From contig JAHISJ010000029.1 in the NCBI GenBank assembly GCA_018818205.1, positions 1 to 62,133 of the forward strand: DNA of 62,133 bases, given 5' to 3'. The position numbers and the translations under genes are program-made. This stretch comes from Patescibacteria group bacterium (GTDB lineage Bacteria > Patescibacteriota > JABMPQ01 > JAHIRA01). Position 1 is the stretch's first letter; each line of letters begins with the position of its first letter. The notes beneath the pieces are model-generated. The model saw only the letters and a program-made list of their open reading frames with translations, did not search any database and had not been told where the DNA came from. Shown one piece after another: positions 2 to 60,758 of the stretch.

Positions 2-235
2 ATCCCACTGTATGCTGGTTGTTCAGCTATGGTTCCAGTTGTTTTTGCCATTACTACAAAAGGTATTCCTTTGGGGACTTCTCTAGCTTTTCTAATGGCT
101 GTTGCTGGGCTTTCCTTGCCAGAAGCTTTAATGCTTAAAAAGGTAATGTCTTTAAGGCTCTTGCTTTTATTTTTTGGGATTGTTGCCTTTGGAATTATTA
201 TTGTGGGATATCTGTTTAATCTCTTGGGGGTATAG
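2..235 (+). CDS. C-terminal fragment of a multi-pass permease (DUF318/ArsP-like); the 5' end lies outside the window
   Basis: The frame is open from base 2 (IPLYAGCSA precedes the ATG at 29). The translation gives two hydrophobic helices, and the PLYAGCSA...GIPLGTSLAFLMA segment resembles this permease family as I recall it. Confidence 0.45.
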   Translation: MPLYAGCSAMVPVVFAITTKGIPLGTSLAFLMAVAGLSLPEALMLKKVMSLRLLLLFFGIVAFGIIIVGYLFNLLGV

Positions 236-285: not shown

Positions 286-406
286 CTGAGATTATGATTG
301 ATTATGGCACGGCTTTGTGGGGTTTTTGTTTACAAAAAAAGACCAATTTTAGGTCTTTTTCCAGTTCAATTCTCTTCAGGGTCGTGCGAGGGAGGAAATT
401 AGAACT
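286..406 (+). repeat. Cassette-boundary repeat, copy A (long form)
   Basis: About 95 nt (286-381) align with the 3' flank of tRNA-His at 7197-7290. The shared part includes GTGGGGTTTTTGTTTAC, the hairpin AAAAAGACC..GGTCTTTTT and CAGTTCAATTC. It ends in the 28-nt core GGGTCGTGCGAGGGAGGAAATTAGAACT (379-406). Confidence 0.85.
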
Positions 407-520
407 GTGTTTGTTGATTCTAGTTTGTGCTAATGTCTAACTTGATAAAGCAGGAGTAGTTATTAAATAGGTTAAATCATGAAATGCTCTGTATTTTCTC
501 TAGATAAATTGTGAGATTTA

Positions 521-549
521 AAAACGCCTCAATTTTTATTGAGACGTTT
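521..549 (-). terminator. Rho-independent terminator downstream of the 582-1439 gene
   Basis: On the minus strand the stem is ACGTCTCAAT / ATTGAGGCGT, followed by TTTTT. Confidence 0.6.
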
Positions 550-581
550 AAATTTTGCTTGGCATAAAGGTAGTACAAATC

Positions 582-1439
582 CTATAAAAAGAACACTAAT
601 ACGTTGATCCCAAGACCAATCAAAAAAGGATCTGGGATAATTGTGACACCTACATAGTAGCCAAATCCAACAGGAATATCTTTTAAAAAGAACTCGAAAC
701 CTAGGTAGGTTCTGATAACTGGTTGAATGGAGGGATATTTAAGTGTTTCTGGTAAGCCTGAAGGGTCAAAAATATTAAACCCCAGGTCAAACGAAGTTTT
801 TCCTACAAAGTTTATATTGAAGATTCCTTTTAAAAGAGGAGCTTTCAATATAAATCCAGGAGAAATTGGAACCAAATATACTCCTCTAAAAAGATTCCCT
901 TTAGGGGTGCATACACTTGAAGATGTAAAAGCCACACTAATTATGAGGCCCAGCCTAAGTTTTCCAAGTTTCCAGAGAAGCGTAGCATCTAAACTATTGC
1001 CAAACAGACCACTAGACTCTCGACACCCACGATTTGAAGTGGTCGCAGTAAATCTAATTCCAATAGCTGTTTCTATAAAGAAATTTTTCTCTTTGATATT
1101 TTTTTGACTTTTCTTGGTTTTGGCGCTTTTGGTCGTGCTGCTTTGGCTGGTTGGGCAGTAAAAAGAGTTCATTTGCCCCAAGCCCTTTCCTTTTGGAGGG
1201 AGATACACTGGCAGTCTCCCATTCTCCGCTTCTGCAATGAGTCTATACATTTCGCTGGCTTTAGAAACACAGCGTCTAAGATCCTTCAGGCAGTATGCTC
1301 CTTTTTTACAATCATTATCCCGCAGGCATTCACCAGGGAAATATTGTATCTTTCTGCATGGGAGAGTAGAAGCCTTTTCAGCACAAGCTACGTTCATTTC
1401 TATCAAGAAAAAAATCACAAACAACACTTTATTGTTCAT
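582..1439 (-). CDS. Secreted hypothetical protein: signal peptide, small Cys-rich module, then a beta-strand-rich region
   Basis: An AGGAG SD precedes the ATG. The N-terminus is hydrophobic (MNNKVLFVIFFLIEMNVACA). A CxxxxxCxxDxDCxxGxxC module follows, and the C-terminal 170 aa show alternating hydrophobic/polar residues. Confidence 0.55.
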   Translation of the reverse strand: MNNKVLFVIFFLIEMNVACAEKASTLPCRKIQYFPGECLRDNDCKKGAYCLKDLRRCVSKASEMYRLIAEAENGRLPVYLPPKGKGLGQMNSFYCPTSQSSTTKSAKTKKSQKNIKEKNFFIETAIGIRFTATTSNRGCRESSGLFGNSLDATLLWKLGKLRLGLIISVAFTSSSVCTPKGNLFRGVYLVPISPGFILKAPLLKGIFNINFVGKTSFDLGFNIFDPSGLPETLKYPSIQPVIRTYLGFEFFLKDIPVGFGYYVGVTIIPDPFLIGLGINVLVFFL

Positions 1440-1569
1440 TTTCCCACTCCTAAAGTAGAAGGTTCCTCGTTACTGCAGGATTCAAACTAACAGGTATTCA
1501 AACTGGTTACAAGTGCTTTTGTGAATCAAAACCACCAGCATTTGCGGTGGTTACTTGGTAATTTCAAAA

Positions 1570-1597
1570 GGGTCGCTTGAGGGAGGATATTAGAACT
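1570..1597 (+). repeat. Cassette-boundary repeat, copy B (core only)
   Basis: GGGTCGCTTGAGGGAGGATATTAGAACT, in the same orientation as the other copies. It lies between the divergent genes 582-1439 and 1721-2728. Confidence 0.8.
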
Positions 1598-1644
1598 CAA
1601 TGTGTAGAAGTGGGGTGTCGGAATTGGTTTGGTACATCAACCCG

Positions 1645-1673
1645 TTGACATTTGCATAAACAAATGCTATCTT
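1645..1673 (+). promoter_or_regulatory. Candidate sigma70-type promoter for the 1721-2728 gene
   Basis: TTGACA, a 17-nt spacer, then TATCTT, located about 50 nt upstream of the start codon. Confidence 0.35.
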
Positions 1674-1720
1674 TATTGGCTTTGTATAGCAAAGTGTTCG
1701 TACTTAGTTTAGGAGGTCCC

Positions 1721-2728
1721 ATGAAAAACGTATTTTTGTATTCTTTACTGACTGTTTTCTTTTTTTCACAAAACGTATTTGCTGCTCCGACAACAAAAAA
1801 GGCTACCTCAAAGCCTGTTGTGATTATTGGCAACAATGTTCCCCAAATTAAAAAAGCACGTGCGTTGCTTAGCAAGCTTTTAGTGATGGTTCGTAAGAGC
1901 AGGCAGGCCGATGCATTTGCAGCATTGAACTGGTTTAAGGATCATATGTCGCTGAGTCGTTATCAAGCAATTGACAGTTCAGTGTTAGCTGTTCATCTTC
2001 CTTCAAAAAAGCGTCCTGCGGTGAGATTCTACTATATTACTAAAAAGGATATGAAACGGTTCAAAAATATTCATGTAGTCAAGAAACTTTCTGAAGGGAA
2101 TGCTCGCGGAGGTTACAGCTGTTACCAGAAAAGCTTGTTTATTCCCGAGTCGGCTGATTGGACAAAGACGTTTCAACTGATTGTATTTTTGCATGAAATT
2201 CTGCACACCTACAATCATTTGGGTAAGAAAGTTAGAAAATGCTTAAAGCCAAAGAAACCGATTAGGACGAAAAAGCAATACAGGGCATTTGCAAAGAAAC
2301 GGTTTTTAGAATCAATGAAAGACGAAACTCGCGTGCGGGTTGTGCTTCTTAAGTTTCTCAAGGCTCTTTGGAAGAAGAAGTTTTCCGATCTTCTGGAGCA
2401 AATGAGAAAGAAGATCGTTCTTAGAGGTTATAAGCAACCACTTTATAACTCAAAAAAAGCGATTCTGGCGTTTTTGTGGCAGCTTAGGGTTATGGAGCGC
2501 GAGGTGGCAAGTGGCAGAGCAAAGCATCTTTTTAAGCCGTTTGACCTTGTTTTGGATAGCCTTTTTGGCAAACCAAAGTCACATGCAGAAATGGTTCAAC
2601 GGACCATGTTTATTTTTAGACTTGCGGTGTTCCATACGTGTGAGAAGAGTCCGCTTTTGCAACAAAAACCGTATACGCCGTTTGCTATTCAGTATAACTT
2701 TCTGAGATATACATTGAAGACGGGATAA
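1721..2728 (+). CDS. Secreted protein with an HExxH motif (possible zinc metallopeptidase-like protein)
   Basis: An AGGAGG SD precedes the ATG at 1721. The signal peptide is MKNVFLYSLLTVFFFSQNVFA. It contains FLHEILHTYNH (HExxH plus a nearby His) and is very basic. Confidence 0.55.
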   Translation: MKNVFLYSLLTVFFFSQNVFAAPTTKKATSKPVVIIGNNVPQIKKARALLSKLLVMVRKSRQADAFAALNWFKDHMSLSRYQAIDSSVLAVHLPSKKRPAVRFYYITKKDMKRFKNIHVVKKLSEGNARGGYSCYQKSLFIPESADWTKTFQLIVFLHEILHTYNHLGKKVRKCLKPKKPIRTKKQYRAFAKKRFLESMKDETRVRVVLLKFLKALWKKKFSDLLEQMRKKIVLRGYKQPLYNSKKAILAFLWQLRVMEREVASGRAKHLFKPFDLVLDSLFGKPKSHAEMVQRTMFIFRLAVFHTCEKSPLLQQKPYTPFAIQYNFLRYTLKTG

Positions 2729-2811
2729 TCATTTAGACGACACCTTTAGCACACTATTAAAGTAGTAAGCCGGATCCAAATAGTGGGTTCGGTTTTTTTG
2801 TATGCATGTAT

Positions 2812-2886
2812 GCAAAAAAGACCATTCTCAGGTCTTTTTCTCAGTTCAATTCCTGTATGGGTGGCGTGAGGGAGGAAATTAGAACT
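2812..2886 (+). repeat. Cassette-boundary repeat, copy C (hairpin-terminator + core)
   Basis: AAAAAAGACCATTCTCAGGTCTTTTTCTCAGTTCAATTCCTGTATGGG is nearly identical to 7243-7290. It is followed by the core GGGTGGCGTGAGGGAGGAAATTAGAACT (2859-2886). Confidence 0.85.
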
Positions 2887-2975
2887 CTAGAGTCAAAAAA
2901 GTAGATTTATTCTTTACAGTAGCAACTTAGTAAGCTACTGTTTTTGGTGTCCTTTGGTTTTTGTTTGGAGGAACA

Positions 2976-4001
2976 ATGAAAGAATCGATTGAAACTATTC
3001 TTGCTATTGCACATGACTATCATAAGCCATTATCGGAAGCTCTTATTGTTGGCTGGGTTAATCAGTTTCCAGAAAATACTCGATCAGTTATTTTAAAGGA
3101 ACTTGCGAAGATTTTACGTGTTTTTTACTTTTCCAAAGACCGCTTTGTGGAACTTGTTCAGACAGGATACAAAAAGGTTATCACTACACTTAAGAAAAAA
3201 TGTGACAATTCTATTACTGTAGGAGATGTGGAATTTATTAGAGGCTACTCTGAAGGAGGCGCAAGCCAAGATGAGATTCTAGATATTCTTGATGCACATC
3301 TTATGTCTGAGCATGGCATTCATGTCGATACGTGTGGCGGCGGGTATTATTTTGCCCTTTTTGATGATGCATCATACACTGGCAATAAAATGGTACACTC
3401 TGCGCGGAGATGGATTGAAGCCGAGGGTGACAAAGATAAAGTACTGGTAGTTGCACCTCTTATTATTCACACTAAAAGTTTAGATTATTTGAGCAAACAA
3501 GTCCGCGTTGCCTCGGTGCGTACTTTAAAAAAAGCTCTGGTTATCGCAGTGTATCAGGTGCAAAATACAACAACTATGGGTGGAGTGTTCCAGGGATACA
3601 TTCCTGCACAGTGTGATAATGAAAGCGTGAAAGCATTTATAGAGTGCCATCTAGATTTAGGGTATGGACAACGACTTTATAGGCCCGATAACTTTATTCG
3701 TGAAGAAAAGTTTTTTAGTTCAAAAGAAGCTAGAGAGATTGTTGAGCAGCAACTTCTAAGCAGCGGTGCACGACTTATAAACCGGTGTAGCTCTGTTGGT
3801 CGTTCAACCCGTCCCATGGGATTTGAGACGCTGGATACACTCGGATTTGGCACGCCTTTGGTTTTTTACCGCAATATTCCCAACAATGCGCCGATTGCAT
3901 TTTGGTGGGGTGTTGGACAACATCAACCGCTATTTGATCGAGTAACATACGCAGATCGTGTTGATGCTGCAGAAGAGACTGACGATGAATGGCCTTGGTG
4001 A
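2976..4001 (+). CDS. Phosphoribosyltransferase (PRTase)-fold-like protein of unknown function
   Basis: A GGAGG SD precedes the ATG at 2976. YYFALFDDASYTGNK matches the type-I PRTase PRPP loop (hydrophobic run-DD-x3-TG). The rest of the protein I cannot assign. Confidence 0.6.
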   Translation: MKESIETILAIAHDYHKPLSEALIVGWVNQFPENTRSVILKELAKILRVFYFSKDRFVELVQTGYKKVITTLKKKCDNSITVGDVEFIRGYSEGGASQDEILDILDAHLMSEHGIHVDTCGGGYYFALFDDASYTGNKMVHSARRWIEAEGDKDKVLVVAPLIIHTKSLDYLSKQVRVASVRTLKKALVIAVYQVQNTTTMGGVFQGYIPAQCDNESVKAFIECHLDLGYGQRLYRPDNFIREEKFFSSKEAREIVEQQLLSSGARLINRCSSVGRSTRPMGFETLDTLGFGTPLVFYRNIPNNAPIAFWWGVGQHQPLFDRVTYADRVDAAEETDDEWPW

Positions 4002-4671
4002 AAAGCGAGTATATGTGCAGAATGAATGTGTATTAATTCATAAAACTAACGCTCAGTGGGGCGCGCTTTCCAATATGTGTCGTGGATTCCCGATTTTACT
4101 TCCATTTAACGGTGGCAATGTAGTGCTACCCACATCTGAAGTGCTCTATCAAATGATGCGATTTCCTGAATTGATTGCGTCAGACGGATCCCACTATTTT
4201 CAAGCGCATCTTGCAAAAGAAGTGAATCCTATGAAAGCAAAAATGATCACCAAGCCTTATCGTATGCAGCACAATCGGCCTGATTGGGATTATGTACGTG
4301 TACGTATTATGCGATGGACACTTAGAATGAAATGGCTTTGCAGCTTGAGTCGTCTTGGACCGTTTCTTTTGGAGACAGGGGTTGCACCAATTGTTGAGTA
4401 CTCAAAAAGGGATGATTTCTGGGGTGCAAAGCCGATTAAAGAAAGGCCAGGACTGCTTTTGGGTTACAATGCGTTGGGTAGGTTGCTTATGGAGCTTAGG
4501 GAAGGATTGTGGCATAGAGACAACTTTCATTGGTTTTTATATGTTGAACCGCCAATTCTGCCCCACTTTACGTACGGCGAAAGACAAATTCTTCCCCTAG
4601 TGTACGAATCAGGTCTTGAGCAAGCGCTTATGGATTTTTCCTTGCAGCATTTTTGGCGGACACTAAAATGA
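3985..4671 (+). CDS. NADAR (YbiA/DUF1768) family protein
   Basis: GALSNM...LPTSEVLYQMMRF, RPDWDYVRVRIMRWTLRMKW and DDFWGAKP...GYNALGRLLMELRE align with E. coli YbiA blocks (FSNF...PTSEHYFQAQKF, NWESVKEQVMR, YWG..G.N.LG.LLMELRE). The start overlaps the upstream stop by 17 nt; the alternative start is 3958. Confidence 0.85.
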   Translation: MNGLGEKRVYVQNECVLIHKTNAQWGALSNMCRGFPILLPFNGGNVVLPTSEVLYQMMRFPELIASDGSHYFQAHLAKEVNPMKAKMITKPYRMQHNRPDWDYVRVRIMRWTLRMKWLCSLSRLGPFLLETGVAPIVEYSKRDDFWGAKPIKERPGLLLGYNALGRLLMELREGLWHRDNFHWFLYVEPPILPHFTYGERQILPLVYESGLEQALMDFSLQHFWRTLK

Positions 4672-4726
4672 AATTAAAACAAAAGCACGTGCTCTTTTTG
4701 AGTTCGTGCTCTTTTTGTTAAAAATT

Positions 4727-4754
4727 AGGTTGCGTGCGGGAAGAAATTAGAACT
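4727..4754 (+). repeat. Cassette-boundary repeat, copy D (core only, most diverged)
   Basis: AGGTTGCGTGCGGGAAGAAATTAGAACT. Confidence 0.7.
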
Positions 4755-4806
4755 GAGATGTGTAAATGTACAGCGGCAGATTTGGTTTATTGATATTTTA
4801 AAACAA

Positions 4807-4838
4807 AAAACCATCATGATGATTTACTCATGATGGTT
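4807..4838 (-). terminator. Rho-independent terminator downstream of the 4890-5285 gene
   Basis: A 12-bp stem AAACCATCATGA / TCATGATGGTTT, with a T-run on the minus strand. Confidence 0.7.
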
Positions 4839-4889
4839 TAGAACTTATTTGAATTTAGGTTAATTGGAAAGAAATAATTCAATTTAACT

Positions 4890-5285
4890 CTATGAGCAGT
4901 TTGATTGCTGTGTTAATATTTTTATTTCAAGTGCTCTTTTGTACTCCTCTTGTCGAGCAGACTCAAGAGGGGTGCCTTTTGCACGTTTCAACACTTCTTC
5001 TGCAACGTTCAGCGCAGCAACTGCTTGTTTTGGGCTAGCGCTACATTTCATTTTTTGAGCTAATTCATGAAATCTGGTCCACTCGTCATCGGTTTCCAAG
5101 TTTTCTTTGTTGGCATGGATGAGCATAATAGCCCACGAAAAGTAGTTTTCGTTTTTTCGCTCAAGACAAAGTTCTGCGAAGAGAAAAGCTTCTTCAAGTT
5201 TCTTTACTTCTTGAGCGAGTTGTTTTAAGAGGTCACGAATTTTCCCATTTTTTCCTTTAGCTTGTTTATAGAGTTTTTGAAACAT
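4890..5285 (-). CDS. Small helical hypothetical protein
   Basis: AAGGAGG lies 8 nt before the ATG at 5285 (MFQKLYKQAK...). The protein is charged and helix-prone. I recognise no motif. Confidence 0.5.
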   Translation of the reverse strand: MFQKLYKQAKGKNGKIRDLLKQLAQEVKKLEEAFLFAELCLERKNENYFSWAIMLIHANKENLETDDEWTRFHELAQKMKCSASPKQAVAALNVAEEVLKRAKGTPLESARQEEYKRALEIKILTQQSNCS

Positions 5286-5433
5286 TTCAGTCGCCTCCTT
5301 GTTTTTTGATATTAGAGAACACATGCAGAATGAATGCACCTCAGTGCATAAATGCTACGTCATTATACAATAAAAAGGGCTGGAAGTCAACCCCTTCTAG
5401 AAAAATTTAAGATAAGGTAAATTTGATTGTCTT

Positions 5434-5462
5434 AAGGTGGCTTGAGGGAGGATATTAGAACT
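5434..5462 (+). repeat. Cassette-boundary repeat, copy E (core plus a 3' extension shared with copy A)
   Basis: AAGGTGGCTTGAGGGAGGATATTAGAACT. The following GTGTTTG...AGGAGTA.GTATT resembles the sequence after copy A. Confidence 0.8.
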
Positions 5463-5612
5463 GTGTTTGCTAGTTTTACTCATCTTAAGTAGGAGTATGT
5501 ATTTTATTCGGGCGTGCAATAATTGCTTATAATGTTAGTGCTCTTTTCTAGCTTTCAGAATTCCCTTATTTCAGCCTAAAGAGTGGCTTTCTTATATTTG
5601 CTTATAATAAAT

Positions 5613-7038
5613 CTAAAAGGATGTATTATAATAAGTATTTTTAGATTGTCCCCTTTGGCTAATCAGCCCTAGTTGGCGCATTTGTTTTAAATCATGATTT
5701 AAGGTTATTCTTGGGGTTTGAGGTAATAGGTTTTCACATTCTTTTGCTTTGACAGTTTTGTTTTCAACCAAGTGTTCCCATATTTTAACTTGTCTTTCAT
5801 TTAACTTACTTAATTTTTGTCCCATTAAAATAACCTTGAAGCTATTTGATGTGTTTTTGAAAATTGGTAAAAGTAAGTTCCATTTCTGCATTTCATTAAA
5901 AACAATATCTATCCCTCTTCCATATTCTTCCAAGTAATCAAGCTCTTTCAAGCGAGCTGCTATAGTTTCATTTCTACTTACCTGGGCATCTTTAATATTT
6001 TCTATGGTGACGCCAGGTGGCAAGCAGCCAGGGTTAAACACTTCTATCCTGTCTTCAAAAATGTTTACCTGCGTGTATGTTTCAGTGGAGTTATAATCTC
6101 TATGTATAACTGCGTTGGCCACTATTTCTCTGATGGCTTTTTCAGGATACTCGTATTTTTCGATTCTTCTTGTACCAACTATTTCTGCACTTTTTCTTAT
6201 GTTTCTTAGAACAAATTTTTGCATATCGTCGATTTGATTATCCAATGTACCATCGATATCTAGGCTATCAATTATGTCAGTTGCTACATTTGACCCTTGA
6301 TACTTTACACATCTAATAACATATCTGCTAAACTGTTGTTTACGCTGTGGTTTGTCTTTGGCGAAGATTAAAAAACCCGCGAGAGTAAGTTTTTCTTTTC
6401 CTCTAAAAATATCGGCTATGCCTAAATTCTTTAATAATTCAAAATCAATTTCTTTTATAGAGCTTCTTCTCTGGGTTCTTTCACCACTTTTAATTAAAAG
6501 TTCTAGAATTTTCTCTTTTGATAAATCATCAAGCGAAGTTCCTTCTGCTGCAATAATATCGTACTTAAATTTTTTTGAATTATCTATTAAGCTTCTCATC
6601 TCGTTGTCAGTCATTTTTCTGTCAGTGTTGCCATCTCGTATATAAGCACCATGTGGTAAGCCAACTGGCTTGTAATAACAGGGCTTAAATTGATTGGGGC
6701 ATTCCGGTATAAATGGCTAAGATTGCTTTTCCTTTCATTTCTAGAATGTGGTACTCGGGCCGAAGGGTGAAGCTCATTTCATTATTCGCTAGGTCTCCAA
6801 TTTTTTCTTGTAAATTGTCAATCACATCAGTCCCTACAATCGTTAATTTATGTTTGTTCTTGTCTTCATCAATGCCAAATACAATAATTCCACCACCAGG
6901 CCGATGTGAAAAAGAAGATACCGATTTCCATATGCTTTTTGGCAAGTCATTACGAGCAGTTTTGAATTCAATACTGCTTGTTTCAGTTTTATTTTTAATT
7001 GATTCTTCAATTAGTTTTATTGTCTCTTCTTTGTCCAT
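5613..7038 (-). pseudogene. Frameshifted AlbA_2 (Schlafen-type) + HATPase_c_4 'divergent AAA / RecG-like' regulator gene
   Basis: ORF 6685-7038 encodes the AlbA_2 N-terminus (SSIEFKTARNDLPKSIWKSVSSFSHRPGGGIIVFGIDED). ORF 5613-6614 encodes the HATPase_c_4 part (REIVANAVIHRDY...SRNETIAARLKEL..EYGRGI). Shifting frame by one base near 6705-6712 restores ...AILAIYIPECPNQFKPCYYKPVGLPHGAYIRDGNTDRKMTDNE. Confidence 0.75.
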
Positions 7039-7196
7039 ATTTTACTTAGATTATTTCTTTGAAATTATTCTTTGTGCATAGTATTCAAATTTGCATATGT
7101 ATCGAGTATATCATTTTTGCTTCTGAATGAATATCTACATAATGCTTTATCACTAGACCTTCATAATTATGCTAATCTTGGGGTAATTTGACATAT

Positions 7197-7290
7197 CTGA
7201 GATATTTATTGAACTGCACGGTTGGTGGGGTTTTTGTTTACAAAAAAAGACCATTCTCAGGCCTTTTTTCAGTTCAATTCCCGTATGGGG
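7197..7290 (+). repeat. Cassette-boundary repeat, copy F (long form, abutting the 3' end of tRNA-His)
   Basis: It aligns with copy A over about 95 nt and with copy C over about 50 nt. GTTCAATTCCCGT (7272-7284) is an inverted copy of the tRNA-His T-arm (7297-7309). Confidence 0.85.
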
Positions 7291-7360
7291 TGACCAACGG
7301 GAATTGAACCCGTAATAGGAGTACCACAAACTCCTGTGTTACCATTACACTATGGTCACC
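7286..7360 (-). tRNA. tRNA-His (GTG)
   Basis: The cloverleaf was folded by hand: G-1 plus acceptor GTGACCA/TGGTCAC, D stem GTGT/ACAC, anticodon stem GGAGT/ACTCC with loop TTGTGGT, and T arm ACGGG-TTCAATT-CCCGT. CCA is encoded. Confidence 0.9.
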
Positions 7361-7425: not shown

Positions 7426-7698
7426 TTATGCGGAAAATCCTTCTAAATCCCCGCTTTCCTCAATTTTCTTGTCTTCATACGGCCCTGCTTTTCTGCGGTA
7501 AAATTCAAGTTTAGCAGCCTCTAAGGCACCAATGAGCTCATTTAAATCCTTGTATCTGCCCTCTCCGGTCATAGCAAGCAATAATCTATTGATGGTATAG
7601 TTTAGTTCGCCTGCTCTACCCTCTTGTGTCATCGCGCTTGCTAAGGGGTCAATGAATTGATCTAAACGTTCTCTGTCTTTTTTGGGTAGATAGGGCAT
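7426..7698 (-). CDS. Small conserved hypothetical protein (90 aa)
   Basis: Clean ORF encoding MPYLPKKDRERLD...LNYTINRLL...LEAAKLEFYRRKAGPYEDKK. It looks like a conserved family, but I cannot name it. Confidence 0.55.
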   Translation of the reverse strand: MPYLPKKDRERLDQFIDPLASAMTQEGRAGELNYTINRLLLAMTGEGRYKDLNELIGALEAAKLEFYRRKAGPYEDKKIEESGDLEGFSA

Positions 7699-7734: not shown

Positions 7735-7777
7735 GGGGTCCCCGAATAATTCCTATTATTTGGAGAGAAGGAGGAAC
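7735..7777 (+). repeat. Hairpin + purine-run repeat, unit 1
   Basis: GGGGTCCCCGAATAATTCCTATTATTTGGAGAGAAGGAGGAAC. The stem is CCGAATAAT/ATTATTTGG with loop TCCT, followed by AAGGAGG and the ATG at 7781. Confidence 0.75.
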
Positions 7778-7855
7778 ATCATGGAAGCTGGAGCGAGCTC
7801 CGTAGCGAAACATGAGTACTTAGCTTAGACAGGAAAAAGGAGAAAAGTAAAAATT

Positions 7856-7898
7856 GGGGTCCCCATAAAATTCCTATTTTATGGGGAAAAGGAAGAAG
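7856..7898 (+). repeat. Hairpin + purine-run repeat, unit 2
   Basis: GGGGTCCCCATAAAATTCCTATTTTATGGGGAAAAGGAAGAAG. It matches unit 1 at 33/43 positions, and the stem differences are compensatory (CCCATAAAAT/ATTTTATGGG, loop TCCT). Confidence 0.75.
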
Positions 7899-7920
7899 TG
7901 TCTTTAGGCTGGAGGTCAGT

Positions 7921-8122: not shown

Positions 8123-9259
8123 CTAATTACAATCTTCACTAAGGAAGTCTATGAAGTTTTTAGAATTGATTAGTTTTAAACTACTACCTGGATATGTTTC
8201 AAGGAAAGATCGTACTGAACGTGCTTTATTGCCTCTCCATTTAAATTCATATCCATGTAGAGTTGCGTTTATATCCTCTAGGTAGTCAATTTCTTGCTGC
8301 TGATATGTTCTCCAAAAGTAAGGATTACTATCGTATCCGTTATTGTGACAATTCTTTATTCGTTCACTTATCATAAAGTTTTCAAAAAGTGCACCAGTGT
8401 CTTGTCTAAGATCTAGCGGGTTTAAATTATTTATTAGAGCATTTCTGATTCCTGTATCAACAAAATAAACTTTTCTCAGTTTCGTTAATTCTTTGCGCAA
8501 ATTTTTACTGTAGGGCTTGAGTCTAAAAATAACAAATGCCTTTTCTAAGATTTGTAAGTAGTGAGTGACTGTTTTTTTGTTAATCCCAACAAGGCTGGCA
8601 AGTTCATTGTAGGATACCTCGTTTCCTACTTGAAGTGCTAATGCTTGAAGAAGCTTTTCAAGCATATCCGGATTTTTGATTTGTTGAAATTGAAGTACAT
8701 CTTTGAAGAGGTAGCTTTTTACAATGTTTTTTAGAAGCTCCTCAGATTCAGCACTTTTCTCAACAATTTCTGGATACATGCCATAGAGCATTCTCCTTTC
8801 TAGCAGTCGCTTTACTTCCTGTCGTGAATATCTCTGCATGAGTTCTTCTACAGAGAAAGGGTACAGAGTAAAAAAATAGGCTCTGCCCGTAAGCGGTTCC
8901 TCAATATCATTTGATAGCTCAAAAGAAGAAGATCCTGTAGCTACAATTTGAATCTTTGGGAATGTGTCTACAATAAGTTTCAATGTCAAACCAATATTTT
9001 TGACTCTCTGAGCTTCATCAATAAATACGATTTTACTATCTCCAATAAATGACTGAATCTCCGTAGAGGTAGCATCAGTGAATGATTTTCGTATATCTGG
9101 CTCATCGCAGTTTAGGTATGTTGAAGATGGATACTTTTTTTGAATTGTCTGAATAAGAGTAGTTTTCCCTACTTGTCTCGCACCATAAATTACTATCACT
9201 TTTCCCTTAAAGAACGAATCTTCTACTTTGCGTTGAATTGTTCTTGTTACAGTATCCAT
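8123..9259 (-). CDS. AAA+ ATPase with a DUF4143-type C-terminal domain
   Basis: Walker A is GARQVGKTTL and Walker B is IVFIDEAQ. The C-terminal YFWRTYQQQEIDYLE block is typical of the AAA_14 + DUF4143 architecture. No SD; the context is AT-rich. Confidence 0.8.
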   Translation of the reverse strand: MDTVTRTIQRKVEDSFFKGKVIVIYGARQVGKTTLIQTIQKKYPSSTYLNCDEPDIRKSFTDATSTEIQSFIGDSKIVFIDEAQRVKNIGLTLKLIVDTFPKIQIVATGSSSFELSNDIEEPLTGRAYFFTLYPFSVEELMQRYSRQEVKRLLERRMLYGMYPEIVEKSAESEELLKNIVKSYLFKDVLQFQQIKNPDMLEKLLQALALQVGNEVSYNELASLVGINKKTVTHYLQILEKAFVIFRLKPYSKNLRKELTKLRKVYFVDTGIRNALINNLNPLDLRQDTGALFENFMISERIKNCHNNGYDSNPYFWRTYQQQEIDYLEDINATLHGYEFKWRGNKARSVRSFLETYPGSSLKLINSKNFIDFLSEDCN

Positions 9260-9409: not shown

Positions 9410-10513
9410 ATGACCCCAACCGGAGAAAGTGCTGAGCGAATGCACGCAGTAGCTGAGCAAGAAAAAAAGAAGCAAGAAGTGACCATCGGTCCAGAAGAAC
9501 TAACAGAGCTTATTTCAAAAAAAGGGGAATCGGTTGATCTTAAAGGAATGTCACAAAGCGATCCTGACAGATATCAACAACTTATCACTGCACTTACTAA
9601 TCGTAGTGTAAAAAGCGAGCTGCCTTTAGATACGCAGGCTTTTTCAGGCAATGATCTCAGAAGTTACGATGTATATATGCTCGATGTGATTCAGCAAAAA
9701 GAAGCGGCTCGAGCATTGTTTTTTGGAACAGTAAACGACGAAACGCTACAAGATGCTTCAGCTTTTTTGGCTGAAGAGTTGCCAAAGGCTGAGTGGCTTG
9801 AGCAAAACAAATACCCTGAGCTTTATGGTGCCGCAACGACTAGTGCTCGTGCGGAGATTAAGCAGCTTTTTATTGAACACGGCATTGAAGAAGGATTTCC
9901 TTCCGCGGATAAACCGGAGATAGTGCTTAAGGACCAGCTAACTTTTTTGCTTAATGAATCAAATGATCCGGAAGAGTATAGTCATGTTGAAGGTGACACA
10001 ATAACACTCAGAGTGACAGAAAGGATGACCGAGGATGATGAATGGGATGTGTACTTAACATCGGTTCATGAACTTTTGACGTCTATTGGCGAGCACAGTG
10101 CAAAGGAAACGGGAGAAGAGCTTACTGATGAGCAGGTTAGGGCGCGTGAAACAGTAGTCAATATTGTAACAAGGATGGTTGCAACAAAACATGTAGAGAA
10201 AGGAAAAACACCACTGAGCGGAGAAGAGGAATTTGAGTATCATCCCCTCCAATATCTTATTTTCACCAACATCCCTGAGAAAAAGTTTGCTGAGGCTTTG
10301 GTGAGTACCGATGCACTGCAAGAACTTATGGATGAGTTTCAAGAAAAGTATAGCAAGAACGAGCAGATAGTCGGTTATGCAAAGCATCTTAAGGGACTAA
10401 TTGCTGCTCAATCAGAAGAATTTCCGGAAGAAAAAGAAGGGGAAGAGGCACTAGCTGATGTTATATCGATTGCAGACTATCTTGAAAAAAAGAAACAAGA
10501 GCGTAAAGAGTAG
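9410..10513 (+). CDS. Acidic hypothetical protein (367 aa)
   Basis: Long clean ORF. The protein is rich in E/D. No motif recognised. Confidence 0.55.
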   Translation: MTPTGESAERMHAVAEQEKKKQEVTIGPEELTELISKKGESVDLKGMSQSDPDRYQQLITALTNRSVKSELPLDTQAFSGNDLRSYDVYMLDVIQQKEAARALFFGTVNDETLQDASAFLAEELPKAEWLEQNKYPELYGAATTSARAEIKQLFIEHGIEEGFPSADKPEIVLKDQLTFLLNESNDPEEYSHVEGDTITLRVTERMTEDDEWDVYLTSVHELLTSIGEHSAKETGEELTDEQVRARETVVNIVTRMVATKHVEKGKTPLSGEEEFEYHPLQYLIFTNIPEKKFAEALVSTDALQELMDEFQEKYSKNEQIVGYAKHLKGLIAAQSEEFPEEKEGEEALADVISIADYLEKKKQERKE

Positions 10514-23328: not shown

Positions 23329-24153
23329 ATGAAAAAGTTTGTTATTGGATTTTTTATTGTCGTAGGACTTATCTTTATAATTGGTGCAATTATTCTTGGT
23401 GTTTTGTATGTGGCGGCCCCTGATCGCTATAACGTACTTATTATTGGTACTGACCAGCGTGGTGATGAGCGGTCGCGTAGTGATGTATTGATGGTTTTTT
23501 CTATTCCCAAGAATCCAAAGGAGCAGACGACGCTGCTTACGATTCCTCGGGACAGTAAGGTTGAGATTCCTGGAGAAGGGGAAGATAAGATTACCCATGC
23601 CTATGTGTATGGGAAGAAAAAGGACCCTGACAGCTCCCTTGGCAATGTTGATTTAACACAAAGCACTGTGGAGAATCTTTTAGGCATTAAAATGGACGCA
23701 ACACTTGAGTATAATTTTGATAGTTTCTCAGAGATTGTTGACTTGATTGGTGGAGTAAACGTAGATGGCACACAAATGGATAGCGATGACGCGCTCCTTG
23801 CAGCGCGGAATCGCTATAGAGCAGGTGGTGACTTTGCTCGTACAGAAGATCAACGGCAGATATTTCAAAGTATTTTAGCTCAGGCAAAGAATAAAGATGT
23901 TGCTACGGCGCTTTACCATTACATGACTACTTCAAAAAACGCTCGGTTGCAGTTTTCACGGATGAGTGCAGGGCATTTTGGATTGGGGTTTTATATGAGA
24001 AGGCTTGGTAGGATTTCTATTGGTGACATTACGGAAGAAGTGGTGCCAGGGAAGGGCGGTACGCAGTATTCGGCGAAGTTTGGGCAGAATTTGTATTTTT
24101 GGGGTGTGGATGAAGAGGGGTTAGAAGAGATTGTGGAAGAGGGGTTTAGGTAG
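23329..24153 (+). CDS. LytR-CpsA-Psr (LCP) family protein
   Basis: N-terminal TM helix, then VLIIGTDQRGDERSRSDVLMVFSIP...LLTIPRDSKVEIPG, which is the canonical LCP core. Confidence 0.85.
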   Translation: MKKFVIGFFIVVGLIFIIGAIILGVLYVAAPDRYNVLIIGTDQRGDERSRSDVLMVFSIPKNPKEQTTLLTIPRDSKVEIPGEGEDKITHAYVYGKKKDPDSSLGNVDLTQSTVENLLGIKMDATLEYNFDSFSEIVDLIGGVNVDGTQMDSDDALLAARNRYRAGGDFARTEDQRQIFQSILAQAKNKDVATALYHYMTTSKNARLQFSRMSAGHFGLGFYMRRLGRISIGDITEEVVPGKGGTQYSAKFGQNLYFWGVDEEGLEEIVEEGFR

Positions 24154-24237
24154 ATTAGGGTGGGGACAAAGCTTAGACAGATTAGGGTGGGGACAAGCCC
24201 CACCCGTACGCAGTAGGGGTGCCCCTTGTGGGTACCC
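24152..24237 (+). repeat. Tandem AGATTAGGGTGGGGACAA(A)GC x2, GGGTGGGG hairpin and a REP (GTAGGGGTGCCCCTTGTGGGTACCC)
   Basis: Direct tandem copies are at 24152-24173 and 24178-24198. The hairpin is at 24185-24205 and the REP at 24213-24237, upstream of the RAYT gene. Confidence 0.8.
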
Positions 24238-24246
24238 GATGGGAAT

Positions 24247-24280
24247 AAAAGCGGAGAAAATTTATTTTTATCCGCTTTTT
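24247..24280 (+). terminator. Rho-independent terminator (after the LCP gene)
   Basis: AAAAGCGGA / TCCGCTTTT stem plus a T-run, ending right at the RAYT start codon. Confidence 0.65.
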
Positions 24281-24859
24281 ATGTATAGAAGAAAAAATTC
24301 GTTGAGGCTGAAGAGATGGGATTATTCAAATAATGGGTGGTACTTTGTGACGATATTTGTGCAAAATGGTGTATTAATGTTTGGTGAAGTTGTAAGAGGG
24401 GTAATGGAATCAAATGAGTCCGGAAAATTGGTTTATCAAGCATGGAAAGAGTTGCCGAAAAGTTACCCCACAATAGCAATTGATGAGTTTGTAATTATGC
24501 CAAATCATATGCACGGCATAATAATTAATAAAAACCCCGTAGGGGAGCCCCTTGTGGGCACCCAACCCCGAAGCACCCAATCCCGAAGCACCCAATCCCG
24601 AAGCACCCAATTCATGGGCATCACCAAATCCCATAATCATTATAGTAATGTGAGCAATATCATTGGCGCATATAAATCAATCACAACGAATGGCTATATA
24701 CGTAATGTAAAACAGAATAATTGGAAACCATTCCAAAAAAGAATTTGGCAACGTTCCTTCCACGACCACATTATCCAAGACGAACCTGATTTACATCGGA
24801 TTCGTACCTATATTCAGAATAATCCTCAAAATTGGGAATGTGGTTGTGATGATCAATAA
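24281..24859 (+). CDS. REP-associated tyrosine transposase (RAYT, IS200/IS605 Y1 HUH family)
   Basis: YFVTIFVQN, the HUH motif MPNHMHGII, and C-terminal IWQRSFHDHIIQDE..L.RIRTYIQNNP. I chose the start at 24281; the longer ORF from 24131 reads through repeats. Confidence 0.85.
   Translation: MYRRKNSLRLKRWDYSNNGWYFVTIFVQNGVLMFGEVVRGVMESNESGKLVYQAWKELPKSYPTIAIDEFVIMPNHMHGIIINKNPVGEPLVGTQPRSTQSRSTQSRSTQFMGITKSHNHYSNVSNIIGAYKSITTNGYIRNVKQNNWKPFQKRIWQRSFHDHIIQDEPDLHRIRTYIQNNPQNWECGCDDQ
24537..24563 (+). repeat. REP copy inside the RAYT coding sequence
   Basis: CCGTAGGGGAGCCCCTTGTGGGCACCC encodes PVGEPLVGT in frame. Confidence 0.8.
24567..24611 (+). repeat. 3 x 15-bp perfect tandem repeat inside the RAYT CDS
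   Basis: CCCGAAGCACCCAAT repeated three times, in frame (RSTQS x3). Confidence 0.9.
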
Positions 24860-24872
24860 TGCAATAACAAAA

Positions 24873-24916
24873 GGGGTGCCCACAAGAAAAGGGGTGCCCA
24901 CAAGGGGCACCCCTAC
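24873..24916 (-). repeat. REP half-copy + full REP in inverted orientation downstream of RAYT
   Basis: GGGGTGCCCACAAG, then GGGGTGCCCACAAGGGGCACCCCTAC, which is the reverse complement of the 24213-24237 type. Confidence 0.85.
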
Positions 24917-24930
24917 GTAAAAAACGATTT

Positions 24931-31090: not shown

Positions 31091-31951
31091 TTATTTTTGT
31101 TTGCAAATCCCATCTGCTGCGCCACCTAAAATTTCATCGTATAATGAAACATTTTCCTGCTTTTCACATGTAAGTGGAGATACACAGCCGTGATTTGAAA
31201 TAGTCTCGCTGGCGCTTATTGAAGAGGTACTGCATTTGTCATTCTCTTTAAGTAGACAATATTTTATAGGAGAATTTGGCGGCTGGAGACAGCGAGTATT
31301 TGGGTGACAGGTTTTACCTTCTACAAGGAAGGTACGTTTATACCGTTCGCACTGTTCAGAAGTCATGTCTTTACACTCTCCTCCACAGAGAGCATAGAGG
31401 GGTAATACGGCCTTCTGTTCTCCCGGTTGTTTCTGAGCATTTTCAGGCGTGTTTCCAGAACCTGATGATGGAAGAGTGCCACTGCCAGTATTCCCTGATT
31501 GGCTTGATTGATTTGCGTTTTGGGTGGGGCTTGAAGGGTCATTTTGCGTAGCAGCATTGGGGGTAAATACAGGCGTTTCTGTTGGGTCACTAAAGAGTGC
31601 ACCGGTTACATAACTTGCAATGAGAAATGCGGCAACGACAATAACCATACCAATAACGCCATATGTGATAATCTTTTTTCCAAGCTCTATGCGCTCTTGA
31701 CTGCCTGCTGACGTTGCATACGTTACTCCGCCATAAACCATAACGGCAAGAAGCACTACGGCAAGGGCCGCAAGTACCCATCTGATGATATTTCCAACAA
31801 AGACATCTGCTTTCTGGTTTGTAAGTCCCAGGTTAGTTACGTTTTTTAATCCAAAATCAGTAACGGCATGAGTCGCGGACGGAGCAAAAATAAGAACAAC
31901 AAGTGCTATAAGTAACAAACTGGTGCATAAAAATGTAACAACGGGCTTCAT
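31091..31951 (-). CDS. T4SS-pilin family protein with a C-terminal low-complexity + Cys-rich extension
   Basis: The pilin block is VYGGVTYATSAGSQERIELGKKIITYGVIGMVIVVAAF. A P/S/Q/N-rich linker and a Cys-containing tail follow. I chose the start at 31951. Confidence 0.7.
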   Translation of the reverse strand: MKPVVTFLCTSLLLIALVVLIFAPSATHAVTDFGLKNVTNLGLTNQKADVFVGNIIRWVLAALAVVLLAVMVYGGVTYATSAGSQERIELGKKIITYGVIGMVIVVAAFLIASYVTGALFSDPTETPVFTPNAATQNDPSSPTQNANQSSQSGNTGSGTLPSSGSGNTPENAQKQPGEQKAVLPLYALCGGECKDMTSEQCERYKRTFLVEGKTCHPNTRCLQPPNSPIKYCLLKENDKCSTSSISASETISNHGCVSPLTCEKQENVSLYDEILGGAADGICKQK

Positions 31952-31961
31952 CGTCAAAAAA

Positions 31962-32324
31962 TTATTTGGTAAGTGAACCGATAACAAATTCAGCAATGAT
32001 GCGCGCTGCCGCGACAACTGCAATACCTATGATAGCGTATGTGATGGTTTTCTTTGCGGAACCAACTCTCTCCTCGCTTCCCGCCGAGGTGAGATACAAT
32101 GTACCACCATACACCAGCATGGCGATTAATATTACGGCAAGGACCCCCGTTACTGCATTGATAATCTTAGTTACATACTCTGTAGGACTTGCTTTTGGAA
32201 GATCAGTCTTTGCTAGGAATCCTAAGCCAAAGTCTCCCGCCGCAGCTGCAGTCTCAGAAAAAACAAACAGGCCTATGCAGGCAAGAAGAACTACACTAAA
32301 AATCACAATACTCTTTTTGCTCAT
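31962..32324 (-). CDS. T4SS-pilin family protein, minimal form
   Basis: VYGGTLYLTSAGSEERVGSAKKTITYAIIGIAVVAAA. I chose the start at 32324 (MSKKSIVIF). Confidence 0.72.
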   Translation of the reverse strand: MSKKSIVIFSVVLLACIGLFVFSETAAAAGDFGLGFLAKTDLPKASPTEYVTKIINAVTGVLAVILIAMLVYGGTLYLTSAGSEERVGSAKKTITYAIIGIAVVAAARIIAEFVIGSLTK

Positions 32325-32380
32325 ACGTGTGTTTACTAGTGGGTGAAAATCACCCAAGTTTATAGGTAAGAAACAAACTA

Positions 32381-33037
32381 TTAACCAGCACCAAGCGCAC
32401 CCATAACAAACTTTATTATAGTATATGCACCAAGAGAAATAACAAGACCAATGATGCCGGCGGTAAGAGCGGATTTCCCTTTCTTTGCATTTTCTTCACT
32501 ACCACCAGACGTTGCGTACAGGAGTCCTCCATAAATAAATACCGCAGCGGCAACTACTGCAACAAAGCCTAAAATATAGTTGATAATCTTTACGATTAGA
32601 TCACCGATATTGGTAACACCAAGGGGGTTATCAAGAGTTACAGATGTTGTTTTTGTACCACCGGTGGTGGCTCCTGGTGTGGCAGCAGCATTGGTATTAC
32701 TTGATGCGGGTGTAGATGCACATGTGCCGTTTACACACTTGATGGTACCGCCGCATTCAGCATCTTTTGTACACGCTTTTTGTCCAGTTGCTGCTGGAGC
32801 AGTGGTACATACATCATTTACACAGGTTTCTCCAGTTTGACATTCATGATCTATTTGGCAAATTCCTCCACTGGGACCACAAGCTCCCTTTGTTCCACCA
32901 CTTGGTATGGTACACGATTGACCCCGAGAACATGCAGAGCTATCCGTGCATTCAACTGCATACGTTGTTGATGACACAAACAACAGACCACCTAAAAGGA
33001 AGGCAACGACTATGAATAACTTTATTACATTGTTCAT
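32381..33037 (-). CDS. T4SS-pilin family protein with an N-terminal Cys-rich repeat domain
   Basis: Signal peptide and three C-x3-[DS]-x-C-x2-G-x2-C-type modules precede IYGGLLYATSGGSEENAKKGKSALTAGIIGLVISLGAY. Confidence 0.72.
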   Translation of the reverse strand: MNNVIKLFIVVAFLLGGLLFVSSTTYAVECTDSSACSRGQSCTIPSGGTKGACGPSGGICQIDHECQTGETCVNDVCTTAPAATGQKACTKDAECGGTIKCVNGTCASTPASSNTNAAATPGATTGGTKTTSVTLDNPLGVTNIGDLIVKIINYILGFVAVVAAAVFIYGGLLYATSGGSEENAKKGKSALTAGIIGLVISLGAYTIIKFVMGALGAG

Positions 33038-33075
33038 TGAAAAAATATGTTATTTTATTTACCTAGCTTTTTATC

Positions 33076-60741: not shown

Positions 60742-60758
60742 ATTATTTGGGCAAATTT
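60742..60758. repeat. Left arm of an inverted repeat bracketing the 60757-61866 gene
   Basis: ATTATTTGGGCAAATTT. It overlaps the stop codon. Confidence 0.7.

Follow-up and report, generated by a model that had tools for sequence, protein, structure and literature searches.

Organization of the locus

We have analyzed an array of five small gene units at positions 286-7360 of a 62,133-base stretch of DNA from a Patescibacteria group bacterium (contig JAHISJ010000029.1; this whole stretch is called the window). The window starts inside an ArsP-family permease gene, and the array is flanked by backbone features, this permease gene on the left and tRNA-His with a DUF6899 gene on the right. The units are separated by copies of a 28-nt repeat (the core, copies A to E), two of which are accompanied by a copy of the sequence lying 3' of tRNA-His (the trailer). 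The comparative basis is this one genome and two relatives, of which one (L001) covers part of the array and the other (L063) the tRNA-His end only; L001 and L031 are one locus present in two collections and were counted as one relative. The features are listed below with window coordinates and, where applicable, the strand.

29-235 (+): 3' end of the ArsP_1-type permease gene (PF03773 on the called gene); runs off the window start; 86% identical to L001
246-378: trailer copy A, the permease-to-tRNA spacer of 135 nt; terminator hairpin at 335-360; anti-T-arm CAGTTCAATTC at 362-372; paralogue of 7157-7285
379-406 (+): core A, GGGTCGTGCGAGGGAGGAAATTAGAACT; tRNA-like sense on the minus strand
582-1439 (-): unit 1, secreted Cys-rich protein of 285 aa of no known family; own bidirectional terminator at about 520-552
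1570-1597 (+): core B; preceded by a minus-strand terminator hairpin at 1531-1548; 27/28 match at the same place in L001
1721-2728 (+): unit 2, protein carrying a signal peptide and the motif HExxH (FLHEILH); promoter-like site at 1645-1673; terminator at 2767-2795
2810-2858: trailer copy C; hairpin at 2814-2839; CAGTTCAATTCC at 2842-2853; 94% identical to the tRNA-His trailer over 48 nt
2859-2886 (+): core C, a pattern match
2976-4671 (+): unit 3, overlapping gene pair, PRTase-CE (2976-4001) and NADAR (3958/3985-4671); Pfam 9e-35 and 7e-17
4727-4754 (+): core D, AGGTTGCGTGCGGGAAGAAATTAGAACT, the most diverged copy; pattern and profile match
4890-5285 (-): unit 4, helical protein of 131 aa of unknown family; strong promoter-like site at 5390-5362 (11/12); terminator at 4839-4808
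5435-5462 (+): core E; right-hand 23 nt identical to core B
5613-7038 (-): unit 5, Schlafen AlbA_2 and HATPase_c_4 gene (Pfam), split by one frameshift near 6615-6715
7157-7285: trailer H, the native 3' trailer of tRNA-His; terminator hairpin at 7243-7268; anti-T-arm at 7272-7284
7272-7309: palindrome of the T-loop/T-stem of tRNA-His with the trailer, 13 bp, exact
7286-7359 (-): tRNA-His(GTG), intact, with CCA encoded (ARAGORN; Rfam 63 bits)
7426-7698: DUF6899 gene, right-hand backbone beyond tRNA-His

Each of the five intervals holds one transcription unit, as listed in the initial annotation, which had been made from the sequence alone; the unit size is 0.7-1.9 kb and the orientations are - + + - -. 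Units 2 and 4 are equipped with strong promoter-like sites, and there are terminator-like hairpins in or next to units 1, 2 and 4. The base composition of the array genes is inside the range of the window, and no similarity to known phages or plasmids was found.

The 28-nt core repeat

The initial annotation had described a family of direct repeats punctuating the region, and this family proved to be real, local, oriented and recognizable at the DNA level: the five cores and the tRNA-His end mark all unit boundaries (6/6), and no copy is present in about 40 other intergenic regions of the window. The core consensus is RGGTNGCKTGAGGGAGGAWATTAGAACT, whose right-hand 17 nt are near-invariant, and 19 of the 28 positions are invariant across the five copies. 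A degenerate form of the core gave five matches, all on the plus strand (384-406, 1575-1597, 2864-2886, 4732-4754 and 5440-5462) and all inside 5.1 kb, against 0.01 expected by chance in 62,133 bases. A profile made from the five copies and run at maximum sensitivity found no sixth copy in the window, leaving the other 55 kb empty. The coordinates first reported for cores A to D are correct, and that for core E was one base early, its start being 5435 instead of 5434. A repeat family scattered through the genome in the manner of terminators or repetitive extragenic palindromes (REP), in a region of invariant synteny, had been named as the outcome that would speak against a cassette structure; what was seen instead is an empty remainder of the window and an orthologous locus in one relative only.

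We also checked whether the array could be an artifact. Two separate assemblies (an ENA contig and two Logan contigs), either of which may come from the same sample as the window, are 100% identical across the region, and the break between the Logan contigs lies inside the Schlafen gene, away from the repeats; a chimeric assembly join at the repeats is therefore unlikely.

On the minus strand, a T-loop-like heptamer TTCTAAT begins 2 nt into the core and is followed by a T-stem-like pentamer, a 7-nt acceptor-like strand and a CCA-like triplet (a true CCA only in copies C and E), just beyond which the core ends. The earlier parsing of the core as the part of a tRNA gene from the T-loop to the 3' end was thereby confirmed in its register, and this is the segment that many integrases leave as direct repeats (preprint 10.1101/2020.11.02.365908). 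The core resembles tRNA 3' ends generally: core C aligns with z-scores of 4.2 to tRNA-Leu(TAG), 3.7 to tRNA-Arg and 3.1 to tRNA-His of the window, and the z-scores of the cores against the tRNA-His 3' end (1.0-3.1) are no better than those against the tRNA-Leu(TAG) and tRNA-Arg genes. It had been noted that the core cannot pair with the tRNA-His 5' half, and in agreement with this no 5' partner strand was found for its T-stem or acceptor. As candidates for a tRNA, a pseudo-tRNA or a known RNA the cores were rejected, ARAGORN and Rfam (gathering threshold, and E up to 5) being negative at these positions.

The directions of the genes are mixed while the orientation of the cores is constant, and several cores lie behind terminators or in divergent promoter regions; a role at the transcript level is therefore unlikely. 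This bears on the possibility that the core is a cis-acting DNA or RNA signal, i.e., a binding site, an insulator, or a termination or processing signal placed between independently expressed accessory genes. Such a signal would suit the strictly intergenic position and the purine-rich GGGAGGA block of the core, and the core beside unit 1 is kept at 27/28 in L001 against 73-83% identity of the neighboring DNA. It would have to ignore the direction of the flanking genes, and it would be serving some positions downstream of terminators on both strands; furthermore, the core has neither a fold of its own nor an Rfam match, the other intergenic regions of the window do without it, and the assembled genome of the relative has a single exact copy. 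We consider a cis-acting signal to be quite improbable.

Trailer copies and the palindrome at tRNA-His

Among the five copies, A and C alone carry the hairpin AAAAAAGACC..GGTCTTTTT and the sequence CAGTTCAATTC, so that the long form of the repeat proposed in the initial annotation holds for these two copies; in B, D and E no significant similarity extends past the 28 nt. The resemblance of copy A to the flank of tRNA-His is likewise correct, and its extent, given earlier as about 95 nt, had been underestimated: positions of about 246-381 correspond to 7157-7290, i.e., to the whole spacer from the permease stop codon to the tRNA, with 85% identity over 68 nt and 78% over 128 nt. The z-scores for similarity of the left flanks are 42 for A and tRNA-His, 23 for C and tRNA-His, and 16 for A and C. 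The portion duplicated in A and C is the trailer and not the tRNA part. Copy A is accordingly a hybrid composed of a chromosomal trailer, which is orthologous in L001, and a core, and the tRNA retains a second copy of the spacer. Judging from these similarities, copies A and C are taken to be descendants of a module composed of a tRNA end and its trailer. B, D and E have in common exactly a 28-nt block with unrelated flanks in local alignment, and this sharp sharing makes them look like recombination sites and not like segmental duplications. To the right of the cores, similarity between A and E and between B and D is not significant by local alignment, A and E agreeing at 12 of the first 16 bases.

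At the tRNA itself, the reported 13-bp inverted repeat (7272-7284 and 7297-7309) is exact: an inverted copy of the T-loop and the 3' T-stem of tRNA-His follows 12 nt later, and the DNA fold amounts to -16 kcal/mol (z -5.3). A similar inverted repeat had been proposed between the core and CAGTTCAATTCC; in copies A and C it is present in a weak and bulged form (z -1.8 and -1.0), and in B, D and E there is no inverted repeat or fold (z -0.15, +0.45 and -0.93 against shuffled sequences). The relative L063 (JAHIRA010000162.1) has a DUF6899 gene, tRNA-His and the same trailer architecture, and there an altered T-stem is accompanied by a matching alteration of the trailer. By a pattern search we found a T-arm followed by its inverted copy also after tRNA-Ala, tRNA-Trp and tRNA-Pro genes in other metagenome-assembled genomes (MAGs) of the Candidate Phyla Radiation (CPR) and DPANN, the clearest case being a 16-8-16 palindrome in L079. 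The palindromes of this type are as follows.

L079: 1476-1517
L083: 6881-6917
L063: 5905-5943
Window: 7272-7309
Further cases: L075, L076, L081 and L082

The anti-T-arm was tried as a mark of integrated elements and rejected, because no integrase was found at five loci examined beyond the palindrome; the DNA there contains housekeeping-type genes (L079 and L081), open reading frames (ORFs) without a family match (L075 and L076) or another tRNA gene (L083). For the same reason we regard the trailer palindrome as probably native to the 3' trailers of these tRNA genes. As a separate observation, a Saccharibacteria tRNA gene with a group I intron (L080, 396-717; Rfam 67 bits), which ARAGORN missed, also has an inverted copy of its T-arm downstream.

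The folding results are relevant to an integron-type explanation, according to which the repeats would be attC-like sites that fold as single strands and are recombined in this form by an integron integrase encoded beyond the left end of the window. Single-gene units between direct repeats with no integrase in view recall a cluster of attC sites lacking an integron integrase (CALIN), the trailer allows A and C to fold into a bulged hairpin, and the window, starting inside the permease gene, leaves the left side beyond it. The lack of a fold in B, D and E indicates, however, that attachment-site folding of the integron kind is not a property of the family; in addition, the sequence has no R''/R' boxes (GTTRRRY), the shared unit is 28 nt as opposed to 57-141 nt, the unit directions are mixed, at least two units have strong promoter-like sites of their own, and the permease gene with trailer A is backbone common to L001. 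We regard a true integron as very unlikely.

Related loci

The initial annotation had proposed to search the core in other genomes, asking whether any copy is linked to a recombinase, and to compare syntenic genomes for presence or absence of units. We searched the exact core pattern in 185,579 GTDB species representatives, 241 million metagenome records and IMG/VR. The GTDB representatives gave seven matches, of which one was real; the JGI metagenomes gave 25, again with one real match, which came from the same relative; and the 16 matches in IMG/VR were all due to chance, one being inside a coding region. Outside the window, the true matches are thus confined to JAHISL010000080.1 (L001, a "Patescibacteria group" MAG) and its JGI twin L031, and the search yielded this one related locus. 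Exact-protein and cluster look-ups returned only re-assemblies of the locus in the window and thus showed no population variants.

In L001 the order is the permease end (86% identical), a decayed copy A, an ATP-grasp gene, a small membrane-protein gene, a homologue of unit 1 and a core. The ATP-grasp and membrane-protein genes are missing from the window. The unit-1 homologue is 73% identical and frame-broken with its hairpin kept, and the core is 27/28 identical to core B of the window, with unrelated DNA, the start of an ArsR-like gene, directly after ...AGAACT. These differences mean that the content of the array differs between relatives and that one difference begins exactly at a core edge. 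Concerning presence and absence, L001 shares the permease, trailer A, unit 1 and a core with the window, and L063 shares DUF6899 and tRNA-His; the proposed syntenic comparison could therefore be made on the L001 side, where the relative differs after the core and has extra genes, and neither relative spans the array. The contigs of both break inside the array, that of L063 stopping 70 nt into the trailer, and contig ends commonly occur where strains differ.

Other searches for the same neighborhood gave little. A 25-mer of tRNA-His had no match in the GTDB representatives, and none of 27 loci with the ArsP-family permease has tRNA-His downstream. The adjacency of DUF6899 and tRNA-His is kept in L063 only; in five further contexts of DUF6899 homologues no tRNA-His adjoins, as examined by ARAGORN for L066/L067, L070 and L071 and on called genes only for L072 and L073. 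Two contexts of PRTase homologues contain neither cores nor tRNAs.

We note one peculiarity of the contigs. The window at its base 1 and L001 at its base 3175 stop at the same nucleotide (GATCCCACTG...) in the permease gene, in spite of their 86% identity. Both contigs are from metagenome assemblies, the name of the relative's contig bearing a k141 label, and a repeat or a strain-variable region probably lies just upstream of the shared stop.

Search for recombinase genes

The initial annotation had found no recombinase in view, and domain searches agree with this: no tyrosine or serine recombinase, DDE or integron-integrase domain was detected in ORFs of at least 150 aa in the window, and no unit contains an integrase gene or a remnant of one. 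Two ORFs at 9410-10513 and 60757-61866 were checked as recombinase candidates and found not to be recombinase-like. The sole candidate in the 62 kb is a Y1 gene at 24131-24859, 17 kb away, similar to REP-associated tyrosine transposases (RAYT), with 61 bits to NF047646, which is below the cut-off, and 25 bits to Pfam Y1_Tnp. A REP/RAYT-type link of this gene to the cores was rejected, as it has its own, different GTAG palindromes, which are unconnected with the cores. These are found in the region 24131-24930, where GGGGTGCCC/GGGCACCCC palindromes ending in GTAG come right after the RAYT-like gene and abut the 3' end of tRNA-Leu(TAG).

The minus-strand sequence at the core edge, A|GTTC, prompted us to consider rolling-circle insertion of the IS91-like type, which would occur next to GTTC; neither an IS91-like transposase nor a conserved second end is present to accompany it.

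A system in which the element encodes no recombinase is the Xer/dif type, and the possibility should be mentioned that the core is a dif-type site (11+6+11 = 28 nt), the units exploiting the Xer recombinase of the host in the manner of integrative mobile elements exploiting Xer (IMEX) or of pdif modules. The length of exactly 28 nt is suggestive, a division into GGGTCGCTTGA / GGGAGG / ATATTAGAACT gives a right arm that does not vary and a center that hardly does, no element-encoded recombinase is required, and the backbone genes converge on the array. Against this, the arms have no dyad symmetry (4/11 as an inverted repeat, counted by hand), the ATAA-N6-TTAT signature of dif sites is missing from the core on inspection by hand, all sites are direct where those of pdif modules alternate, and the GC skew shows no switch at the array, staying positive over the 30 kb that follow on its right, which does not fit a terminus. 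An origin of this type is hard to credit.

Serial integration as the favored explanation

The reading that we favor, and to which we give about as much credence as doubt, is that the locus is an accretion array formed by serial site-specific integration at the 3' end of tRNA-His, in which tRNA-end mimics carried by the cassettes served as attachment sites and the enzyme is unlinked or lost. A small variable island would then be wedged between the ArsP-family permease gene and tRNA-His, into which short, self-expressed DNA units would have been inserted one after another at the tRNA-His 3' end by site-specific recombination. Each unit would bring its own 28-nt attachment site mimicking the part of a tRNA from the T-loop to CCA, at least two units would also bring a copy of the tRNA-His trailer, and each insertion would leave one more site in the same orientation, with the result that the sites now separate the units. 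The recombinase would act in trans, being encoded elsewhere in the genome or on a helper element, or it may have disappeared, leaving a fossil array, a state with which the frameshift in unit 5 and the decay in L001 are compatible.

Serial insertion is best supported by four features taken together: the hybrid nature of copy A, the duplicate of the spacer that adjoins the tRNA, the near-identity of the trailer at C and the clean 28-nt sharing in B, D and E. The first three of these fit incoming DNA that bears sequence homologous to its target, the trailer of C being 94% identical. Recombination itself, the point of crossover and any ongoing operation we infer, and two crossover points may be envisaged. 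A crossover at the outer (T-loop) edge of the core would have each unit end with its own site, as the comparison with L001 suggests, and would mean that units 1-4 entered at core-type sites and not in the tRNA. A crossover at the junction of core and trailer, close to the shared RGGT/CCA region, would never disrupt the tRNA, and a hybrid such as copy A would be expected; from the flanks of B, D and E it would then follow that the trailer side is dispensable.

Several observations weigh against serial integration. The array contains no integrase, serine recombinase or transposase, and the core has no dyad symmetry, no conserved partner arm and no hairpin of its own. The core also differs from tRNA-His, its T-loop being TTCTAAT versus TTCAATT and its acceptor strand CCCTCAC versus TGGTCAC; the T-stem differs too, the core is 3-4 nt longer, and it is missing the 7-nt overlap in common with the tRNA T-loop, so that repeats of the classical kind, made of displaced tRNA ends, are not what is found here. 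As the same departures from tRNA-His occur in all five cores, they derive from a single diverged prototype and have been passed on in that form. As for the relatives, a single one (L001/L031) covers part of the array, L063 being limited to the tRNA-His end; the L001 core is equally close (27/28) to cores B and E, so that its orthology is unproven; copy A is decayed in L001 (17/28 by hand count on the alignment) with its hairpin lost; and the extra genes of L001 have no detectable core on their inner side. Between serial insertion beside a tRNA and an integron-like array, the two mechanisms offered by the initial annotation, what has stood is a local repeat family on the side of a tRNA, with a relative that differs after the core; a strict integron, and cores that are displaced tRNA-His 3' ends, have not.

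Alternatively, the array may have arisen by local duplication and decay. The cores and trailers would then be leftover copies of the tRNA-His 3' region, i.e., pseudo-tRNA ends, and the genes would have come in by illegitimate or homologous recombination with no site-specific system. A, C and the tRNA flank are clearly paralogous as one tRNA-end-plus-trailer module, a weak pairing of T-arm and anti-T-arm is retained in A and C, copy A is freely decaying in L001, the unit-5 gene is frameshifted, and the indel between L001 and the window lacks a core boundary on one side. Segmental duplication, however, does not make sharp-edged blocks such as B, D and E, which are limited to 28 nt amid unrelated flanks; derived states are common to all five cores, which resemble one another more closely than the neutral trailers do; and copies stand at every unit boundary and nowhere else in the window. 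On balance we find local duplication and decay unlikely.

CPR bacteria are ultra-small and have tiny genomes, and how they acquire and exchange accessory and defense genes is poorly understood. If serial integration is true, minimal recombinase-less units at a tRNA-mimic site would be a compact route of gene gain for tiny genomes, and the core would be a new kind of attachment site for metagenome searches. A bolder proposal, which we put forward as speculation with clear reservations, is that CPR bacteria have an integron-like chromosomal platform of gene capture that is differently built: a 28-nt double-strand site mimicking a tRNA end, seeded at the trailer of tRNA-His, at which an unlinked recombinase stockpiles and shuffles self-expressed single-gene units including anti-phage systems.

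Cargo genes and surroundings

The cargo of the array is accessory and partly defensive. The unit-1 protein has zero homologues among 5.8 billion proteins, and that of unit 2 has no family match in Pfam, NCBIfam or PHROG. In unit 3, the PRTase/NADAR pair resembles, by its sequence, the two-gene anti-phage system DS-32; the scores against NCBIfam are 216 bits for DS32_1 and 173 bits for DS32_2, under the curated cut-offs of 250 and 240. A DS-32-like pair filling one unit would extend the recent theme of anti-phage systems that travel as small cassettes. Both pieces of the unit-5 gene match one PHROG family of 485 aa, and its Schlafen/AlbA_2 family also occurs in defense models.

The nearest homologue context of the PRTase/NADAR pair (53% identity; L100, 640-935 and 1464-1679) includes NYN, Fic and PD-(D/E)XK genes. 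The intergenic regions of L100 have repeated GTGAATTTAYCCCAAAATC...AAAATTCACG motifs, which constitute a different repeat system in another defense neighborhood. To the right of the array, a gene at 8123-9259, just beyond tRNA-Leu(CAA), encodes an AAA_14/DUF4143 ATPase corresponding to the PADLOC candidate PDC-S01 (2e-156), and the defense-gene neighborhood therefore reaches past the array. Between the DUF6899 gene and tRNA-Leu(CAA) there is a pair of 59-nt repeats (7735-7793 and 7856-7914; 73% identical) that start with the palindrome GGGGTCCCC.

Further away, three adjacent T4SS_pilin (PF18895) genes are located at 31091-34590, one of them with a Dickkopf-like Cys-rich N-terminus; the similarity of the unit-1 protein to this gene product is a weak one of Cys motifs only (E 0.001). 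A CPR/Patescibacteria host is indicated by the genes with T4SS_pilin domains and by the taxonomy assigned to the relatives. At 42315-43160, among housekeeping genes (FemAB, RuvA and FtsJ), there is a gene for a Bro-N protein (phrog_15286 at 8e-112), which may be a stray phage-derived gene.

Comparison with known systems

The pdif modules of Acinetobacter plasmids and the IMEX elements at dif are small gene modules with 28-bp sites and no encoded recombinase; the core differs from their sites in lacking Xer symmetry and signature, in being always direct, and in not lying at a switch of GC skew. Integrons and CALINs consist mostly of single-gene units between direct repeats, their integrase may be missing, and anti-phage cassettes occur in them. 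Their attC sites are imperfect palindromes of 57-141 nt with R''/L''/L'/R' boxes (GTTRRRY), and the cassettes are mostly promoterless and co-oriented. The array has no attC structure or boxes; its site is tRNA-derived and 28 nt long, its units are in mixed orientation, and at least two of them have strong promoter-like sites.

Islands at tRNA-like genes offer closer parallels. In Dehalococcoides, horizontally acquired islands integrate site-specifically at the single-copy tRNA-like gene ssrA (tmRNA) (PMC3146451). The array differs from these in having a repeat that does not copy the neighboring gene and in having no integrase. The ssrA islands are reportedly flanked by direct repeats of the ssrA 3' end and are said to carry an integrase of their own.

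The tycheposon islands of Prochlorococcus are tRNA-anchored, result from successive integrations and contain scattered partial-tRNA repeats (bioRxiv 10.1101/2020.12.28.424599). The array is like islands of this type in having an intact tRNA at one end and same-orientation repeats in the register of a tRNA 3' end between blocks of accessory and defense genes, and the likeness extends to newer insertions displacing older ones outward and to degenerate remnants without integrases. It differs in that the repeat is a distinct mimic common to all units and not a copy of the adjacent tRNA, in its single-gene units of 0.7-1.9 kb with no integrase or fragment of one, and in its CPR-type host.

Cis-mobilizable elements (CIMEs) keep their att sites and have lost their integration genes, with tandem accretion at a tRNA 3' end and an integrase acting in trans (Guedon et al. 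2017, PMC5704250). In the array, too, recombinase-less units would have accumulated in tandem by a tRNA gene. CIMEs are, however, decayed integrative and conjugative elements or integrative and mobilizable elements of many kilobases whose attL and attR are identical to the tRNA end, whereas the array is composed of five minimal units and has a site unlike the tRNA. Lacking both an integrase (or a remnant of one) and a repeat copied from the tRNA beside it, the array is a strict member of neither group, and it is with the tRNA-anchored islands and the CIMEs that its manner of working has most in common.

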